Source of the DNA: a virus
Taxonomy: Duplodnaviria > Heunggongvirae > Uroviricota > Caudoviricetes
Reading direction: 5' to 3' (one strand)
IMG/VR virus record: IMGVR_UViG_2579778538_000002
DNA: 33,753 bases
Shown here: piece after piece, positions 4,467 through 11,121 of the stretch
Position numbering within the stretch: the stretch's first letter is position 1
Layout of the letters: every line of letters begins with the position of its first letter
The notes under the pieces: generated by a model
The model's input: only the letters and a program-made list of their open reading frames with translations
The model's database searches: none
What the model was told of the DNA's origin: nothing
Made by a program: the position numbers and the translations under genes

Positions 4467-5347
4467 ACACTCCTCGTCAGTATTCTGGCGGCCATTGCAC
4501 TTAATCCCGGAGACATGCGGTTGAATGCTGTGCCGACGGCGTTAAGCTGCCCGGAAACGGTATCCAGAGCACCTGCAATATTTCTTTTGTCCACACCACT
4601 CAGCGCAGACTGTGCCTGCTGTACATACGTGGCTGCTTCGCTGGCTGTTCTGGCCAGACTGATGGCATCGGGCATGGATTCAGAGAGTGCGTTAAACGCC
4701 GGAACACTTTTCCCCAGAGCCCCGGAGATATTACCCAGTCCGCTCATCAGCCCCGGCACACGGGTCAGTGCGACAACGGGGTTATCCTTCATTTTCTGTG
4801 TCACCCGAACGGCGCTGATAGTGGTCTGGAGTACAGACTGCGCCTGTTTCGCATAGTTGACGCCGTTGCGGATGAACTGCGCCACCCCTGAAGGTGAAGG
4901 TATGGCACCGGAGACCGCCCCGACACCCGGGAGCTTCGTGCGTATTGCCGGTGGTTGCAGAGGATTTTTCGGGTCACCGGTGTATTCCCGGAGAGACACG
5001 GTGGCACTGACAGCCAGCACGTTGCCGGTACTGTCAGTCTGCTCGCTGGTTGCAGTCACATCGGTGATCACGAACCAGCCGCGATAGTCACCGTTGCCGA
5101 AGACCAGCGCCAGTGCCTGATGGGCTTTCATGGCTGTTCGCAGTCTCGCCAGCTCCACATCGGGTACACAATAATGCTGATGGAAAACCAGAGTTATCTG
5201 GATTTCGTCCAGCCTGTCGCCGACGAACTGCAGACCAGGCTTACCCCCGATGCGGGCATGCTCCGCATAATCGACGCCGAACGTGGCCTCGAAGCCGTCC
5301 CAGTAGGTAATCAGCTCAAACTCAATATCACCCAGTACGGCAAACAT
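4463..5347 (-). CDS. tail formation protein, P2 gpU-like N-terminus (Mu gp43/N region)
   Basis: 294 aa; N-terminus MFAVLGDIEFELITYW...GKPGLQFVGDRLDEIQITL resembles the gpU signature (..LG.F.F......FQFLG...I.L.G); starts 1 nt inside the tape measure stop. Confidence 0.55.
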   Translation of the reverse strand: MFAVLGDIEFELITYWDGFEATFGVDYAEHARIGGKPGLQFVGDRLDEIQITLVFHQHYCVPDVELARLRTAMKAHQALALVFGNGDYRGWFVITDVTATSEQTDSTGNVLAVSATVSLREYTGDPKNPLQPPAIRTKLPGVGAVSGAIPSPSGVAQFIRNGVNYAKQAQSVLQTTISAVRVTQKMKDNPVVALTRVPGLMSGLGNISGALGKSVPAFNALSESMPDAISLARTASEAATYVQQAQSALSGVDKRNIAGALDTVSGQLNAVGTAFNRMSPGLSAMAARILTRSV

Positions 5348-8298
5348 CAGCGGTACTCCTTACGTTGTTTCTGAGCCAGCAGACGCTCCAGCATTTTTTC
5401 CAGCTCATGCAGACTCATATTCAGGGCACCAGTCAGTCCTGCAGGCGCTGTGGTTTCCCTGCCATTGAGGAAAAACTGAGGATTAAAGCTGACCTGGATA
5501 CCACCAGACGTTCCACCGCCGGTTGCAGCTGCACCACGGCCTGAATATCCGGCAGCCAGGATTTCAGGCGAGGGGATACGGGGAACATCCGGTGTCATCT
5601 CATTTGCCAGACGTTGCCCTGGTAAAATCGATGCCCGGGTGGAGAGCGGAATAGCGGGCATGGAAGACAAACTATTGATTACGGCTCCGATCGCATTTTT
5701 AGCAGACGACATAAACCCATTGATATCGGGCAACGGCATACTGAAGCGAACACCTGAAGTGTTATCCCGTATTTCTGGCCCCTGAATGCTCACGGGCATT
5801 CTGGGGAGCAGTTCACTGGCCATTCGCTGCCCGGCCAGAGCTGCAAGCGGAGTGGTCCGCTGCAGGCCAATGGCGGCCCCCTGCGCGATATTGTCACCAA
5901 AGCCCATAAACACGCGGCTCGGCGAATGAATGCCCAGCTTTTCGCTGAACCAGCCACTGATGCTGTCGCCCATTCCGGTTACACTGGATTTGAGCGACTC
6001 CCATTTGTTTTTGATACCGTTAATCAGACCATCGACAAGATGGCCACCGAAGTCGGTAAACTTTGCCGGCAGATCAACACCAAGATATTTCAGCGCAGCT
6101 GCAAAGGCTTTATAGAGCAGACCTGCCGGCGACCAGTTAATCAGCAGCTTACCAGTTCCCGCGATACCGCCGTTAAAGGCTTCCTGAATGTCAGCCCAGC
6201 ATTGTTTAAACCAGCTACTGATGCTGTCACCCATTCCGGTTACACTGGATTTGAGCGACCCCCATTTGTTTTTGATACCGTTAATCAAACCGTCGATAAG
6301 ATGGCCACCGAAGTCGGTGAACTTTGCCGGCAGAGTAACGCCGAAATATTTCAGCGCAGCCGCAAAGGCTTTATAGAGCAGGCCTGCCGGCGACCAGTTA
6401 ATCAGCAGCTTACCAGTTCCCGCGATACCGCCGTTAAAGGCTTCCTGAATGTCAGCCCAGCGCTGTTTAAACCAGCCACTGACTGCCCCCCAGTTGCGGT
6501 AGATAAGGTAAGCTGCTGCCGCGACAGCGGTGATAACGAGACCGATGGGATTCATCATCAGCGCTCGCCCAATCCAGAGAACGGCACGTGCAGCGCTCAT
6601 AAAACCGCGAACGAGGCTGCCCGCCAGAACTTTGCTGAGTTTCAGTCCTCCGCTGGTCAGTCGGCTGAATCCAGTGACAAGCCAGCGTAATTTGCCACCT
6701 TCTCCGAGTGCGGTAGTCAGTCGATGCCAGTTGGTCCGGAGTAAAACAGCAGTTTTCCAGACGTTCACAAAGGGGGAAATAAGGAGATTCAGCCCCAGTT
6801 TGAGACCAACAGTCGCTATCTTAATCGCAAGGAGCGCACTGATGAGCTTAAAAGCCCCACTGACAAATTGCGGGTGAGTCGCCACCCAGTGTTTTGTCCC
6901 CTGAATGAGTGGGAGCAAGTCCTGAGTCAGAGAAATAAAAGATGGAGCTAATTGATCGCCCAGCGTAATTGCCAGATCGCGACTGCTGACCATAAGTGTT
7001 TTAGTGGCTTCAAGGGGAGATTTCAGCCGCTGATCATAAGCACTGGCAAGCAAATCGTTATCCGCAGCCCTGAGAGCACCGGCACGGATCTCTCGATATC
7101 TGTCCATGTTGGCCAGCATCGGGCGGATAAATGCCATGACCTGCATATCCGCGAACATATCGCCCAGACCAAAGTTTTTCGCCAGAGCCTGAAGTGCCTC
7201 ATCTCTTGCCGTATCATTCTTTATTTTCATGGCTGATTTGAAGCCGGCCAGCGCTTCGGGGCTTTTGGCATTGAGGTAACGTTCTATAACACTCAACATC
7301 CCTTCAATCGGAGAGATCCCCGCAGCTTTATAACTCGCAATAGATCCCTGCAAATCAATACCCAGATCAGCAAACTGTTTCTGAGTATCGCGGGCAAAAA
7401 TTTTGGTAAGAAAGTTTTTAAAATTATTGGCTGCTTCGTCGGTGGAACCTGCACCGATTTTTGCTATCTGGAGACTGGCCCCGATTTCAGCAACAGCCTC
7501 TTTTCCACTGGCAATACCCGCCATCATTGGGGCCAGGGACTGCATCCACTTGACCTGATCCGGGATTTCAAATGACCCCTGGTCACCGGCATAAGCCATA
7601 ATATTCTGAACGGCACCAAAATCTCTGGCCGCGCCTTTCAGGGAGTTTTGCCAGACTGCGGCCACTTTTGCCCAGTCCTGAGCAGACGTGCGTGTTGCCG
7701 TTGCCGCGCGGGCAATATCCGGCATCAGAAAACCGATATCTGACACATTATCAATATTGTCGCTGATGAGTGAACCCATCGCCTCCTGCAGCTCATCCTG
7801 ATACTGATTGTATTTAAGCGCCCAGCCTTTTATCTGTCCGGCAAGTGCATCCCGCGTTTTATTGTCATATTTTGCGGTGATCGACATATCAATCATTTTG
7901 TCCTGAAAAGACATGGACTGCTGAACGGCAGGGGAAACCGTATGATAAACAGTCTGTGCCATGCCATACGCTTCAATCCCCTGACCATACAGCGCCATGC
8001 GGTTAGCTTTCAGCGCATCACTGGTAGCGGATGCCGCTGACAGACGGCGCTGCTGGCGCTCAATTTGCTCCATGGTGCGGCTTACCCGCAGCAGCTCGCT
8101 GTTGAGATGCTGCATCCGGGAAGAACCCAGTTGACCATAACGTTCTGTTGCACGGGTTAAAGCGTTCTGACGTTCCTGCAGGCGGCGTGAGGTATCGCTC
8201 AGGGAATCAAGCGCACGGCGGGTACCGCTCATTGCAGAACGGAATGTGCTGCCAATCATCCCGCCGATAACAACGCCGACTGAAAACTGTCCCGACAT
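5347..8298 (-). CDS. tail tape measure protein
   Basis: 983 aa, largest tail gene, directly downstream of the frameshifted chaperone pair; helical N-terminal third, hydrophobic central segment, internal tandem repeat; GGAGG Shine-Dalgarno about 10 nt upstream of ATG. Confidence 0.85.
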   Translation of the reverse strand: MSGQFSVGVVIGGMIGSTFRSAMSGTRRALDSLSDTSRRLQERQNALTRATERYGQLGSSRMQHLNSELLRVSRTMEQIERQQRRLSAASATSDALKANRMALYGQGIEAYGMAQTVYHTVSPAVQQSMSFQDKMIDMSITAKYDNKTRDALAGQIKGWALKYNQYQDELQEAMGSLISDNIDNVSDIGFLMPDIARAATATRTSAQDWAKVAAVWQNSLKGAARDFGAVQNIMAYAGDQGSFEIPDQVKWMQSLAPMMAGIASGKEAVAEIGASLQIAKIGAGSTDEAANNFKNFLTKIFARDTQKQFADLGIDLQGSIASYKAAGISPIEGMLSVIERYLNAKSPEALAGFKSAMKIKNDTARDEALQALAKNFGLGDMFADMQVMAFIRPMLANMDRYREIRAGALRAADNDLLASAYDQRLKSPLEATKTLMVSSRDLAITLGDQLAPSFISLTQDLLPLIQGTKHWVATHPQFVSGAFKLISALLAIKIATVGLKLGLNLLISPFVNVWKTAVLLRTNWHRLTTALGEGGKLRWLVTGFSRLTSGGLKLSKVLAGSLVRGFMSAARAVLWIGRALMMNPIGLVITAVAAAAYLIYRNWGAVSGWFKQRWADIQEAFNGGIAGTGKLLINWSPAGLLYKAFAAALKYFGVTLPAKFTDFGGHLIDGLINGIKNKWGSLKSSVTGMGDSISSWFKQCWADIQEAFNGGIAGTGKLLINWSPAGLLYKAFAAALKYLGVDLPAKFTDFGGHLVDGLINGIKNKWESLKSSVTGMGDSISGWFSEKLGIHSPSRVFMGFGDNIAQGAAIGLQRTTPLAALAGQRMASELLPRMPVSIQGPEIRDNTSGVRFSMPLPDINGFMSSAKNAIGAVINSLSSMPAIPLSTRASILPGQRLANEMTPDVPRIPSPEILAAGYSGRGAAATGGGTSGGIQVSFNPQFFLNGRETTAPAGLTGALNMSLHELEKMLERLLAQKQRKEYR
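5950..6471. repeat. in-frame tandem duplication, 2 x 261 bp, inside the tape measure gene
   Basis: Two adjacent 261-nt units starting near 5950 and 6211, about 94% identical (about 16 mismatches); a third unit begins at 6472 and diverges after about 10 nt. Encodes a duplicated 87-aa block (WFKQRWADIQEAFNGGIAGTGKLLINWSPAGLLYKAFAAALKY...). Confidence 0.9.
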
Positions 8299-8373
8299 AG
8301 TGGTTAACCTCCGGGGAAGGTGAAAAGACGTGAGGGGATAACGCAGAACAGCCGCTACTGGCGGCTGTCTGTA

Positions 8374-8791
8374 CTATGATTTGTCGCCGTACTCGCTTTT
8401 GATTTGCTCTTCAGCCTGCTCCAGCCACATCTCCAGATCGTCAGTATCGAGGGCATCAATCTCCCCCGGCTGAAACCGGAACCATCTCGCCAGCAGCCCC
8501 TGCGCCTGCGTCAGCGCCCTGGTTGCTCTCACCCATCCCCGTGATGAGCTGAAATCGTTTCTGTAACTGCAGGTAATCAGCCAGATCCATATTGTCGAGA
8601 TCCTCCGGGAGAAGACCAGTACTGCGGGCAATCAGCGGTTCGTCCCAGTCTGCCGGGTTTTTGCTGATTTTGCGCACCTGCTTCAGGTCTTTTACCGTCA
8701 GGCGTTTCAGTTCAACCAGCTCAATTCTGGTGCCTGCAGCAGTGGTGAAGGGATAAGACAATTTAAAAGTATCGGATGGGGTCTGTGACAT
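8374..8791 (-). CDS. frameshift-extended tail assembly chaperone (gpE+E' / gpGT analogue), +1/-2 shift near 8461-8469
   Basis: The +1 frame stays open for a further 29 codons past the 8456 stop. The shift must occur in the overlap; the G5 run CCGGGGGAG three codons before the stop is the obvious slippery site. Predicted fusion about 139 aa. Confidence 0.45.
8456..8791 (-). CDS. tail assembly chaperone (P2 gpE / lambda gpG analogue)
   Basis: 111 aa ORF immediately upstream of the tape measure gene, with AGGAG Shine-Dalgarno 8 nt before ATG; a second ORF (8374-8631) overlaps its 3' end in the +1 frame, the conserved chaperone arrangement. Confidence 0.6.
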   Translation of the reverse strand: MSQTPSDTFKLSYPFTTAAGTRIELVELKRLTVKDLKQVRKISKNPADWDEPLIARSTGLLPEDLDNMDLADYLQLQKRFQLITGMGESNQGADAGAGAAGEMVPVSAGGD

Positions 8792-8849
8792 GATTGTGCT
8801 CCTGTGTAAGTTCAGGGCAGTATGTCGGGAGAAGCGCGTGACGGATATT

Positions 8850-8881
8850 AAAGGAGATTAAGAAGAAGGGGCCGGAGCCCC
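8850..8881 (-). terminator. candidate intrinsic terminator/attenuator between the tube module and the chaperone/tape measure genes
   Basis: 6-bp GC stem AGGGGC-CGGA-GCCCCT (about 8866-8881) followed on the minus strand by the pyrimidine-rich run TTCTTCTTAATCTCC. Confidence 0.35.
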
Positions 8882-8888
8882 TGTGATG

Positions 8889-9170
8889 TCAGCAAGTGCG
8901 AAACCCCTTGCAGTTACGCAGGAAAGCGATGAGAAGCGTCTTTCCCTCAGATTTGCCGATGCCGGAGAACCAGTGGTCGGGAGGCTCCCATGCTTCAATC
9001 AAATCCGCCAGTTTGCGGGCCTTTGAACGTGTGCAGTCAATCGGGTCATTGGTTTTACGGGTATTAAAAAGGGTTTCCACCCCCGGAATATCAAGGAGGG
9101 TAAACCACGTACCATTTGACATGCCCAGTGCCGCACATCGTCCTCCTTTATCCGTCAGTTCAACACTCAC
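8889..9170 (-). CDS. hypothetical protein (93 aa), translationally coupled to the tail tube gene
   Basis: ORF begins with GTG 2 nt after the tube stop, with a GGGGG run 9-13 nt upstream; no recognisable motifs; could be spurious. Confidence 0.35.
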   Translation of the reverse strand: MSVELTDKGGRCAALGMSNGTWFTLLDIPGVETLFNTRKTNDPIDCTRSKARKLADLIEAWEPPDHWFSGIGKSEGKTLLIAFLRNCKGFRTC

Positions 9171-9172
9171 CG

Positions 9173-9694
9173 TCAGCCCCCGATATTGATACGGTAGTCA
9201 GTCAGTTGATCAACACCGCCGACCCGGAAGATGTTGGCCAGATAGTCCAGTTGCAGCAGCTCTTCACCATCCAGTACCTGTCTGATATACGTGCAGGTGA
9301 AGCTACTGGAGAACTCGGCGTTCTCGTGCTGTTTGAACGTCCCCAGCGGGTTCTTCTTGAACATAATCGTCAGGAAGGTGACCAGCGGGATTTCGTCAAT
9401 CAGCCCCTGCGAGCTGTAGCGCTGGACGCTGGAACGACACTGCAGTGCCAGCGACCTGTACGGGTTCGCGGCAGACAGCATCGCATCGCGGTAAAAGCTG
9501 TTCCATTTGATTTCGCCTTCCAGTTTGTCAAAACCAGCCGGGAGTTCCACCTTACCCACCATCCCCAGCGCCTTGTGTTCCTGCATAATCATGGAGACAT
9601 CGGGGAGTTTAACTTCCTCAGCCCGTCCCAGCAGGTTAGTACCATCCAGATAGATGTTGGCATTCGTGATGCGGTTTATCTCAATCTTTGACAT
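9173..9694 (-). CDS. tail tube protein (Mu gpM-like)
   Basis: 173 aa gene immediately after the sheath gene (stop/start overlap), the canonical sheath-tube order. Confidence 0.75.
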   Translation of the reverse strand: MSKIEINRITNANIYLDGTNLLGRAEEVKLPDVSMIMQEHKALGMVGKVELPAGFDKLEGEIKWNSFYRDAMLSAANPYRSLALQCRSSVQRYSSQGLIDEIPLVTFLTIMFKKNPLGTFKQHENAEFSSSFTCTYIRQVLDGEELLQLDYLANIFRVGGVDQLTDYRINIGG

Positions 9695-11121
9695 CAGTTG
9701 CCCCCTTTCAGGGTTAACAGGTATTCCGAGGTGATCTCAGTCTCAAACGTCAGTCGCTCCAGCGGCGGTGGTGGCGTATATTTGTAGCTCAGCAACAGGT
9801 GCCCGGCGGCCAGCTCCGTCTCCGGATTGCGGGCCGGATCAAACCAGCAACGGAAGCCCAGTACCGCACCATCACCAGTCATTTTGCGACCGTAGGCGTT
9901 GACCGACTCCGTCAGTGCATCAATCAGCGCCTGAGTAATCGGCATGTCGATGTACTGCTGGCTGAAATAACGAATGGACTCGTTGATCACATCACCGGTG
10001 CGGCGAACGTTCTCAAAGTTACGCATATGGGTGACCGTTGGCCATGCTGCCGTCCGGTTACCCCACAGACGAAGGCCGCTGCCGTAACTGCTGAATACCG
10101 TGGTGATCCCCTGTTCGTTAAGCAGGTTCACCTCACTCTGCGGGTCATCAATCATCGCGGACAGCTGGCGCTCCACGCCGGTGATCCCCAGAATCTCCTG
10201 ATTGGAGGATGACCACCAGTAGCCCTTGTCCAGATCGACTCTGGCACGCAGACCTGCTGCACGCTGGCTGAGCGGCTCCAGACGCTCTGTGTTTGTCACC
10301 GGGTCATATACCTTCACATGCGGATAGCACAGACGGACGCGGTCGGAGCTGGTATTGAAGTTGATGGTGCCTTCCGGGCCACGACCTGCCAGAGCCTGTG
10401 CAAAGGTGGTACCGACAGGCGCATCAATGTAGGTTACCGCGCCCAGCTTCTCTGCCATGGCGATAAGCTCAACTGCGACACTCTTCTGGGTGCAGAACAC
10501 CGGCGCAATCAGAATTTTGGCGAAATAGCCGTACAGGTTGAAGCTGTCGTTAAGCAGCTTCATGCCGGTTCGGTTTCCGGCGCTGTTCACCCCGCCGATG
10601 ATGTCCGCCGCAGTCACCTTCGACGGGTCCGCGTACTCATAGCTCACCTTCACGCTGCCACCGGCCTCAATAGCCTTGCCCAGGTTCGTGAGCACACCCG
10701 CCTGCGCATCAACACGGTAGTCCGTGTTCGCCGTGTGGGTGGTGCTGCCTTCACTGTTTTTCACCACCACATTAGCGACAACCGGATGCGCCAGTCTGGC
10801 CTGCCCTGTCGATTTGTCAAAGGTAACCACCTCATCCTCGATCGCCGTTTTATGTTTCGCCGGGTCGAGGACGTTAATGACCAGAACGGTGCCTGCACCA
10901 TGGTCATAAATCGCATCCAGCGCCTGCGGAATGGTAAAGCCGGTGAACTGGCTGCCAAATGCCGCTGCGTCTTTCTCAGACAGGCACTGTACCAGCGTAT
11001 TGACATCCCCCATCGGGGCGGTACCAATCAGGCCAATAACGGCAGATTTCACCGTTTTAACCGGGCGGGCACCGTTTTCCACCTCAATGGTTTCGGGACC
11101 ATGCAGATAGTTAGCTGCCAT
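9694..11121 (-). CDS. contractile tail sheath protein (Mu gpL-like)
   Basis: 475 aa, size and position of Mu L / P2 FI sheath proteins. Confidence 0.85.
   Translation of the reverse strand: MAANYLHGPETIEVENGARPVKTVKSAVIGLIGTAPMGDVNTLVQCLSEKDAAAFGSQFTGFTIPQALDAIYDHGAGTVLVINVLDPAKHKTAIEDEVVTFDKSTGQARLAHPVVANVVVKNSEGSTTHTANTDYRVDAQAGVLTNLGKAIEAGGSVKVSYEYADPSKVTAADIIGGVNSAGNRTGMKLLNDSFNLYGYFAKILIAPVFCTQKSVAVELIAMAEKLGAVTYIDAPVGTTFAQALAGRGPEGTINFNTSSDRVRLCYPHVKVYDPVTNTERLEPLSQRAAGLRARVDLDKGYWWSSSNQEILGITGVERQLSAMIDDPQSEVNLLNEQGITTVFSSYGSGLRLWGNRTAAWPTVTHMRNFENVRRTGDVINESIRYFSQQYIDMPITQALIDALTESVNAYGRKMTGDGAVLGFRCWFDPARNPETELAAGHLLLSYKYTPPPPLERLTFETEITSEYLLTLKGGN

Follow-up and report, generated by a model that had tools for sequence, protein, structure and literature searches.

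The tail-assembly chaperone gene of a BcepMu-like myovirus prophage, carried on a 33,753-nucleotide stretch of viral DNA (IMG/VR record IMGVR_UViG_2579778538_000002, referred to here as the window), is overlapped by a second reading frame that resembles the E' extension of phage P2. Comparison of this gene with its homologues indicates that an unannotated and widespread programmed +1 frameshift at CGA_UUU_C probably joins the two frames, making a homologue of the P2 E+E' protein in BcepMu-like prophages. The chaperone open reading frame (ORF), with 111 codons on the minus strand (8791..8456), is a homologue of P2 gpE, Mu gp41, and BcepMu gp41. It matches Pfam family PF10109 (Phage_TAC_7; E value 5.5e-21, residues 8 to 81), which Pfam describes as "tail assembly chaperone proteins E, or 41 or 14" and which is matched by all 23 of the family members that we compared, as well as phrog_166 ("tail protein"). 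Its functional part extends to about residue 81, beyond which residues 82 to 111 form a poorly constrained tail rich in glycine and alanine.

The second frame is open for 85 codons (8631..8374, minus strand). The initial annotation of this locus placed it in the +1 frame relative to the chaperone ORF, not the usual −1, and both a three-frame translation and the stop coordinates bear this out: the first bases of the stop codons lie at 8458 (chaperone frame) and 8376 (+1 frame), and (8791 − 8376) mod 3 = 1. The same +1 relation holds in all 148 genome and viral loci that are free of a disrupting indel and in all 77 metagenome loci. From the predicted junction onward this frame encodes an E'-type extension of 58 codons plus a stop (8550..8374, minus strand), SSSRGWVRATRALTQAQGLLARWFRFQPGEIDALDTDDLEMWLEQAEEQIKSEYGDKS*, recognized by its +1-frame translation, by phrog_8286 (E value 7.9e-34), and by hhalign. 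Its core (8493..8395, minus strand; fusion residues 100 to 132), LARWFRFQPGEIDALDTDDLEMWLEQAEEQIKS, contains an invariant P108 and E110 and resembles Phage_P2_GpE (PF06528), although the score of the window's own sequence, 18.4 bits, falls below the 23-bit cut-off of that family. Among the 23 family members, 18 match PF06528 at E values up to 0.1, the best at 1e-5. An NCBIfam scan at E values up to 0.1 returned no match to the fusion family, nor to P2's own protein, and a sequence search of the PDB with the family profile returned nothing significant. Because it matches phrog_8286 and PF06528 and has a low ratio of nonsynonymous to synonymous polymorphism (pN/pS), the +1 frame is a genuine coding sequence and no chance ORF. 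Its conservation in homologues, a point that the initial annotation had singled out for checking, was confirmed with pN/pS values of 0.03 to 0.42. This second frame is likely expressed by recoding rather than as a separate gene.

An invariant TTT_C where selection changes frame

The predicted +1 site, CGA_TTT_C, lies on the minus strand about 90 bases 5' of the G-run on which the initial annotation had focused, and comprises Arg79 (CGA, 8557..8555), Phe80 (TTT, 8554..8552), and the C at 8551. Phe80 is the last phenylalanine of the chaperone domain, and a zero-frame UUU followed by a pyrimidine, the hallmark of UUU_Y +1 sites, occurs at 8554..8551. To define its conservation we assembled 79 IMG/VR loci found by a chaperone protein search, 66 loci from species-representative genomes found by an E' alignment search, BcepMu, and further relatives from Salmonella, Ralstonia, and Pseudomonas; with metagenomes, all sets together amount to about 220 loci. 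We then read the codon at the last phenylalanine of the TAC domain in an alignment of the chaperone proteins from all loci. TTT followed by C is found at the homologous phenylalanine in 145 of 147 loci as aligned, and in 146 of 147 once L150, an apparent exception caused by a one-codon alignment offset (ACG TTT CTG), is resolved; these sequences represent 55 distinct contexts. An independent scan of metagenome contigs found TTT_C in 77/77 loci, the four apparent exceptions being mapping offsets that read CGA TTT CTG.

The hosts of these loci span the Enterobacterales, Burkholderia (phage BcepMu), Ralstonia, Pseudomonas, Lysobacter, Geobacter, and Methylotenera. The residue that follows the phenylalanine varies (Gln, Arg, Leu, or His), yet its codon always begins with C. 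TTT persists in GC-rich hosts, in which it is a minority Phe codon: its local share of Phe codons is 0.10 to 0.24 in BcepMu (TCC TTT CGC), Ralstonia, Pseudomonas, Lysobacter, and Variovorax. Over 30 clusters of less than 85% identity, the product of background TTT frequencies is ~1e-12, and CGA precedes the phenylalanine in 19 of the 20 clusters that have an arginine there (joint probability, ~1e-17); both probabilities assume independent lineages and use crude local codon usage, and they are indicative only.

The position of the site is bracketed from both sides. In at least nine lineages (L087, L088, L134, L140, L149, L216, L218, L225, and L237) a stop closes the +1 frame three codons 5' of the TTT, and in six others (L132, L145, L148, L150, L152, and L153) the chaperone frame stops 5 to 7 codons 3' of it. 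Within this bracket, TTT_C is the only shared sequence that allows a P-site tRNA to re-pair in the +1 frame. The overlap thus combines a conserved slippery sequence with a conserved second frame, as in the lambda G/GT class, with the direction of the shift being +1.

Selection changes frame at the same position. We computed pN/pS on 55 enterobacterial sequences. Over codons 20 to 79, the ratio is 0.20 in the chaperone frame and 1.24 in the +1 frame; over the 19 codons 3' of TTT_C, it is 0.83 in the chaperone frame and 0.42 in the +1 frame; and over the E' core, synonymous differences are wholly absent from the chaperone frame and the ratio in the +1 frame is 0.03. Sliding windows place the crossover between the two frames at codons 79 to 85. 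Across 23 diverse predicted fusions, a common tryptophan lies 3 to 6 residues past the phenylalanine and a near-invariant leucine lies seven residues before LLARW.

Two individual loci deserve description alongside the site. L023, represented by two IMG/VR loci that are 98% identical to the window, carries a premature chaperone-frame TAG at codon 92 (CAG to TAG), 3' of TTT_C; this stop, with an intact +1 frame, is compatible with a shift at codon 80. L235 (metagenome contig Ga0164242_10020915) reads CGC TTT TTT CGA, with six T's as in P2; its E' nevertheless remains in the +1 frame, which opens three codons 5', and the sequence might represent a step between the −1 and +1 arrangements.

In the mechanism that we propose, most ribosomes would make the 111-amino-acid chaperone and a minority would shift +1 at CGA_UUU_C (8557..8551, minus strand), where peptidyl-tRNA-Phe (anticodon GAA) would slip from UUU onto the overlapping UUC in the P site. 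The next codon read would be AGC (8550..8548), with translation continuing in the +1 frame from there. The predicted product has 138 amino acids, consisting of chaperone residues 1 to 80 and the 58-amino-acid E' extension (SSSRGWVR...GDKS), and its junction, ...LQLQKRF-SSSRGWVR..., would lie within LQLQKRFSSSRGWVR. If the pair works like lambda gpG/gpGT and P2 E/E+E', both products would coat the tape-measure protein with their common N-terminal domain, and the tube protein would be recruited by the extension of the rare one. We expect the efficiency to be low, a few percent, which would suit a G:GT-like ratio. CGA is decoded through an I:A wobble pair. The rare CGA codon may stimulate the shift through this weak I:A pair in the E site, weakening E-site pairing; alternatively, CGA may act from the P site, disturbing the A site and favoring out-of-frame binding of Phe-tRNA to UUC, and the same protein would be made either way. 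In bacteria, the tetranucleotide UUU_Ynn has been documented as prone to +1 shifts (PMC5009743).

Several observations weigh against this proposal. The site is not universal: L145 (Gallionellaceae metagenome-assembled genome, WSYA01000017.1), the only locus lacking TTT_C, reads CTT CGG GGG CTT ACC TGA and so has a Mu-like CGGGGGC, the −2 heptamer of phage Mu, at the phenylalanine position, where the slippery sequence may have been exchanged for another. The invariance of TTT_C and CGA could partly reflect a requirement of the chaperone domain for Phe and Arg together with shared ancestry. Conservation of the +1 frame is weak over the first 4 to 5 codons past the site (windows 79 to 82), and the codon after the phenylalanine (CAG, CTG, or CGN) is not consistently rare. 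By eye, no Shine-Dalgarno-like stimulator was seen 5' of the site, and RNA folding downstream of it is no better than that of shuffled sequence (z, −0.24); the lack of both elements does fit a low-efficiency event. Finally, the fusion protein itself is a prediction from sequence comparison.

If no frameshift occurred, the +1 ORF would have to be translated alone, as a 45- to 55-amino-acid GpE-family protein from an internal start. In L004 and L005, the NCBI annotation pipeline (PGAP) does call a 45-amino-acid "GpE family phage tail protein" that starts at an ATG, the phrog_8286 profile begins at a GTG (VRATRAL...), and the BcepMu annotation has gp42 as an ORF of its own, starting at an ATG in the E' frame. 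These starts are not conserved, however: the ATG of L004 is ACG in the window and ATT, ACA, or ATA elsewhere, and the GTG is GCA, GCG, CTG, or ATT in other relatives. Conservation of the +1 frame, as seen in the near-invariant leucine and the common tryptophan, starts 5' of the candidate internal starts, and independent initiation leaves the invariance of TTT_C and CGA unexplained. The homologous E' of P2, moreover, is made solely as an E+E' fusion (GenBank AF063097; PMC3091744), with which the predicted fusion is collinear. We judge separate translation of the +1 ORF to be improbable.

The poly-G run and other candidate sites

The initial annotation took a poly-G sequence near the end of the chaperone ORF, CCGGGGGAG (8469..8461, minus strand), for the recoding site and regarded it as the only obvious shifty sequence in the overlap. 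Its position was given correctly: the sequence lies three codons before the chaperone stop and reads GCC GGG GGA GAT TGA in the chaperone frame, with the run of G's itself at 8467..8463. It is not alone, since TTT_C (8554..8551) and two GGG_N sites lie in the same overlap. In this model, a Mu-like −2 or a +1 shift at GGGGG would generate a fusion of 139 or 138 amino acids, respectively, with junction VPVSAGEIDALD (VPVSAGEIDALDTDDLEMWLEQAEEQIK) for a +1 shift and VPVSAGGEIDALD for a −2 shift. Some observations favor this model. The run exists, the chaperone frame of this window reaches it, and a −2 slip could bring a tRNA-Gly from GGA onto GGG. The accompanying statement that Mu uses a −2 shift proved accurate, as the joined coding sequence in GenBank AF083977 is described as a "verified -2 translational frameshift in PMID 15469818," with which PMC5009743 agrees, and the verified Mu site, CGG_GGG_CGA, is a similar run eight codons 5' of the Mu chaperone stop. 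L145 also carries the Mu-like heptamer, though at the Phe codon position and away from the stop.

The comparative data refute the poly-G run as a recoding site and, with it, the suggestion that the locus is a test case for +1 versus −2 recoding at a G-run. A conserved G-run reached by the chaperone frame, as a Mu-type site would entail, is not what we found: of 146 loci, only 39 (16 of 103 unique sequences) have a run of at least 5 G's that the chaperone frame reaches, 45 have a run that lies past the chaperone stop, and 62 have no such run. In many relatives, among them Klebsiella phage KP12 (L002) and E. coli AF22 (L005), a chaperone-frame TAG lies five codons 5' of the run. In the +1 frame the run reads CCG GGG GAG and encodes the Pro-Gly-Glu of the E' core, and loci that lack it encode P-S-E, for example by CCGAGTGAG, instead of P-G-E. 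That coding role explains why close relatives keep the G-run.

The G-run falls within LLARWFRFQPGEID, where conservation of the +1-frame domain is strongest (pN/pS, ~0.03). In a four-way alignment of the window with relatives that are 85 to 89% identical, the differences near the run (AGA/AGG, TTC/TTT, and CGG/AGA) are synonymous in the +1 frame and nonsynonymous or nonsense in the chaperone frame. Further substitutions 5' of the run (GCG to GCA, CTG to CTA/TTG) are also synonymous in the +1 frame, and across LLARWFRFQPGE the +1-frame pN/pS is 0.03 and the chaperone frame has no synonymous differences. Because of these upstream +1-synonymous substitutions and this low ratio, the +1 frame appears to be translated already 5' of the G-run; purifying selection on it is very strong for at least 10 codons 5' of the run and moderate for about 28 codons. 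A shift at the run would also give a product without LLARWFRFQ, the best-conserved part of the E' domain. We therefore regard the G-run as a very unlikely site, and nothing supports a function for such adventitious slippage as may occur on it in this particular phage. The most eye-catching homopolymer in an overlap need not be its recoding site.

Several database proteins appear to be fused at the run (P0004, P0007, P0009, L079, and L126), but they accompany fusions elsewhere (P0023 at GGG and P0060 at AAAAA), and fusions at such varied homopolymers have the pattern expected of homopolymer indel errors or mutations. We accordingly rejected the "fused" 138-amino-acid database proteins as evidence for the junction, since they join the frames at varied homopolymers (G5, G3, and A5) and some carry a second indel (P0023, P0028, P0060, and P0113 being cases in point). 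The in-frame fusions of L079 and L126 (Erwinia tracheiphila, at a C/G run) and of L099 (Apirhabdus apintestini, five codons 5' of the TTT) are one-base deletions, which may be sequencing errors or prophage decay and are uninformative on the junction. L084 has several frame breaks and may likewise represent sequencing error or a decaying prophage.

The same one-base deletions in G5, G3, and A5 runs of public assemblies, some of which could be RNA derived, might be taken as a sign of transcriptional slippage, in which RNA polymerase omits a base in a homopolymer and yields an mRNA with fused frames. Known bacterial transcriptional slippage sites, however, are runs of ~7 to 9 A or T, and the longest run here is only 5 nucleotides. 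The indels are scattered over several runs, as sequencing errors would be, and slippage by the polymerase leaves the conservation of TTT_C unexplained. We consider it exceedingly unlikely.

A further alternative is that TTT_C is conserved for other reasons and that each lineage shifts +1 or −2 at a site of its own elsewhere in the overlap, the candidates in the window being ACG_GGG_A (codon 86) and GCA_GGG_G (codon 100). GGG_N does permit tRNA-Gly to re-pair, CAGGG is invariant among the enterobacterial relatives, and L145 demonstrates that a G-run can occupy the overlap region. The Salmonella relative L086, however, lacks both GGG_N sites (it has AGC ATG GCT and AAT GGC GCT), as do most distant lineages. 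Six lineages close the chaperone frame no more than 7 codons from the TTT, before any GGG_N site, and the TAG at codon 92 of L023 would exclude the codon-100 site, provided that the L023 prophage is functional. Lineage-specific sites thus seem quite unlikely. Two specific slips in this region were considered and discarded: a −2 slip of tRNA-Ala on G_GCG_CA, attractive in the four-sequence alignment, was ruled out by the many relatives that have ACA or CCA, and a +1 slip on GCA_GGG_G was rejected on account of the AAT GGC in L086 and of the several lineages that end the chaperone ORF earlier.

Relation to P2 and to other recoding systems

Tail-chaperone frameshifting is a classic conserved recoding event, and its direction varies among tailed phages, which use −1, −2, or +1 shifts (PMC5009743). 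The same review lists −1 for most phages, −2 for Mu, and +1 for the archaeal myovirus HSTV-2. The +1 shift that we predict at CGA_UUU_C finds a close counterpart in P2, in which E' is made as an E+E' fusion by frameshift (PMC3091744). An hhalign comparison of the predicted fusion family with P2 gpE+E' gives a probability of 94.5% (E value, 8e-8) over 124 collinear columns that run across the junction; sequence identity is only about 22%. As in P2, where gpE/gpE+E' is encoded between the tube (FII) and tape-measure (T) genes, the window's chaperone gene stands between tube and tape-measure genes; it matches Phage_TAC_7, a family whose Pfam description names P2 E (the comparison with gpE itself being by description); and its extension is PF06528-like and of nearly equal length (58 amino acids, compared with 57 in P2). 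The shift would also occur at the homologous codon, the phenylalanine that closes the chaperone domain. The −1 shift of P2 is annotated at GGT TTT TTG, the Phe-Leu that ends its chaperone domain, and in the hhalign alignment Phe80 falls no more than 2 residues from the experimentally mapped T_TTT_TTG site.

The differences are equally clear. E' is in the +1 frame here and in the −1 frame in P2, and the chaperone ORF runs about 30 codons past the site here but only 6 in P2. The −1 shift at T_TTT_TTG that characterizes the P2 family is not encoded in the window, which reads CGA_TTT_CAG and thus has a UUU_C tetranucleotide rather than a tandem-slip heptamer. Judged by these alignments, the two families seem to recode at a homologous Phe codon in opposite directions. 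A broader version of this idea is that a large family of P2-type chaperones, found in BcepMu-like phages and prophages throughout the Proteobacteria and in about 12% of complete E. coli genomes, uses a CGA_UUU_C +1 shift, with no stop codon, Shine-Dalgarno element, or RNA structure, at the phenylalanine aligned with the −1 site of P2, so that the direction of the shift switched during evolution and CGA represents a new kind of bacterial +1 stimulator; we offer this version tentatively and find it doubtful as a whole.

Mu gp41/Mu_56, with its verified −2 shift, has the same +1/−2 frame relation as the window, and the Pfam description of Phage_TAC_7 names Mu gp41, which we compared by that description. 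Mu, however, shifts on a G-run near the end of its ORF, and the G-run is not the conserved site here; nor does the Mu extension, as read from the translations, have an evident resemblance to E'. Lambda gpG/gpGT (−1 at G_GGA_AAG) likewise pairs an abundant chaperone with a rare, C-terminally extended form that joins the tape measure to tube polymerization (PMC5009743), but we detected no sequence similarity to it, the direction of its shift differs, and its tail is that of a siphovirus.

Among documented +1 systems, UUU_Ynn appears to be the site in Yersinia YopN-TyeA, and UCC_UUU_CGU is the influenza A PA-X cassette (PMC5009743). The genes are unrelated to ours, but the slippery tetranucleotide is the same, with tRNA-Phe re-pairing to UUC or UUU, and the TCC_TTT_CGC of BcepMu and L152 matches the PA-X cassette except at its last base. 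At UUU_Y sites of eukaryotic viruses, a slow CGN codon after the phenylalanine is the proposed stimulator, whereas here the codon after it is mostly CAG or CTG and CGA stands before it. The E. coli prfB shift (+1 at CUU_UGA, with an upstream Shine-Dalgarno-like element) is also a bacterial programmed +1 event achieved by P-site re-pairing, and its efficiency is 30 to 50%. The site in the window has neither an A-site stop codon nor a Shine-Dalgarno-like stimulator, and we expect it to work at low efficiency.

If true, the proposed shift at CGA_UUU_C would contribute a widespread +1 case from bacteria whose minimal signal lies in the sequence alone, and it would connect the +1 and −1 solutions through a single homologous codon. 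What makes UUU_C shift usefully, including a possible role for the preceding CGA, could then be studied in a natural system. Within the library searched, we found no description of a UUU_C +1 shift in the P2-type/BcepMu-like family, though an earlier mention is possible in Xu et al. 2004, Summer et al. 2004, or Christie et al. 2002.

Annotation and the surrounding tail operon

Existing annotations miss or split the E+E' product: RefSeq (PGAP) and GenBank records give the short chaperone alone or two separate genes. In the BcepMu record (L156, AY539836, 4603-5364), gp42, which is the E'-frame ORF, is labeled "probable lambda G" and gp43 is given as the slippage product, but the actual TAC_7 chaperone is gp41, which carries TCC_TTT_CGC. 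The assignment of G and T in that record looks like a mis-assignment.

The window is a BcepMu-like myovirus prophage. Over the 1 kb from 8250 to 9250 it shares 100% identity with Escherichia phage PhiKM, a member of Bcepmuvirus in the GenBank classification. Of the 5,426 complete E. coli genomes, 641 (about 12%) contain a 601-bp segment from around the chaperone locus. Mu-like head genes flank that locus, and the tail genes are P2-like. The tail genes are on the minus strand and follow the order sheath (11121..9694), tube (9694..9173), a 93-amino-acid ORF (9170..8889), chaperone (8791..8456) with the +1 ORF extending to 8374, and tape measure (8298..5347). The tube gene, which is P2 FII-like and identified by PhiKM and RefSeq annotation, encodes the presumed partner of the E' extension, and the tape-measure gene (983 amino acids; "tape measure protein" in PhiKM and RefSeq) encodes the presumed client of the chaperone. 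An overlapping ORF pair between tube and tape-measure genes is the gene order that defines the lambda G/GT class (Xu et al. 2004), and the window has it.

The 93-amino-acid ORF scores 24.7 bits against DUF7739, just under the Pfam cut-off of 27, and matches phrog_1239 (E value, 5e-48). It is missing from L086, in which the chaperone gene adjoins the tube gene directly. Between this ORF and the chaperone gene, within the tail operon, lies a terminator-like hairpin (8882..8867, minus strand; AGGGGC-TCCG-GCCCCT) followed by a T-rich tail, which could reduce expression of the chaperone and tape measure relative to that of the sheath and tube. A second, GC-rich hairpin, ACAGCCGC-CAGTA-GCGGCTGT (8368..8348, minus strand), has an 8-bp stem and a 5-nucleotide loop and lies directly 3' of the E' stop, about 50 nucleotides 5' of the tape-measure start. 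Alignment with relatives reveals an invariant stem and a variable loop, and a strong U-tract is absent downstream; this hairpin may be an attenuator or a stabilizer.

Within the tape-measure gene, a 261-bp tandem duplication (6482..5948, minus strand; 2.0 copies, 93% identical) repeats a segment of 87 amino acids. The PhiKM record lists this gene as "disrupted by sequencing gap," RefSeq gives it as "incomplete" for strain SK1144, and the tandem repeat probably breaks assemblies. If real, it would lead to a longer tail.

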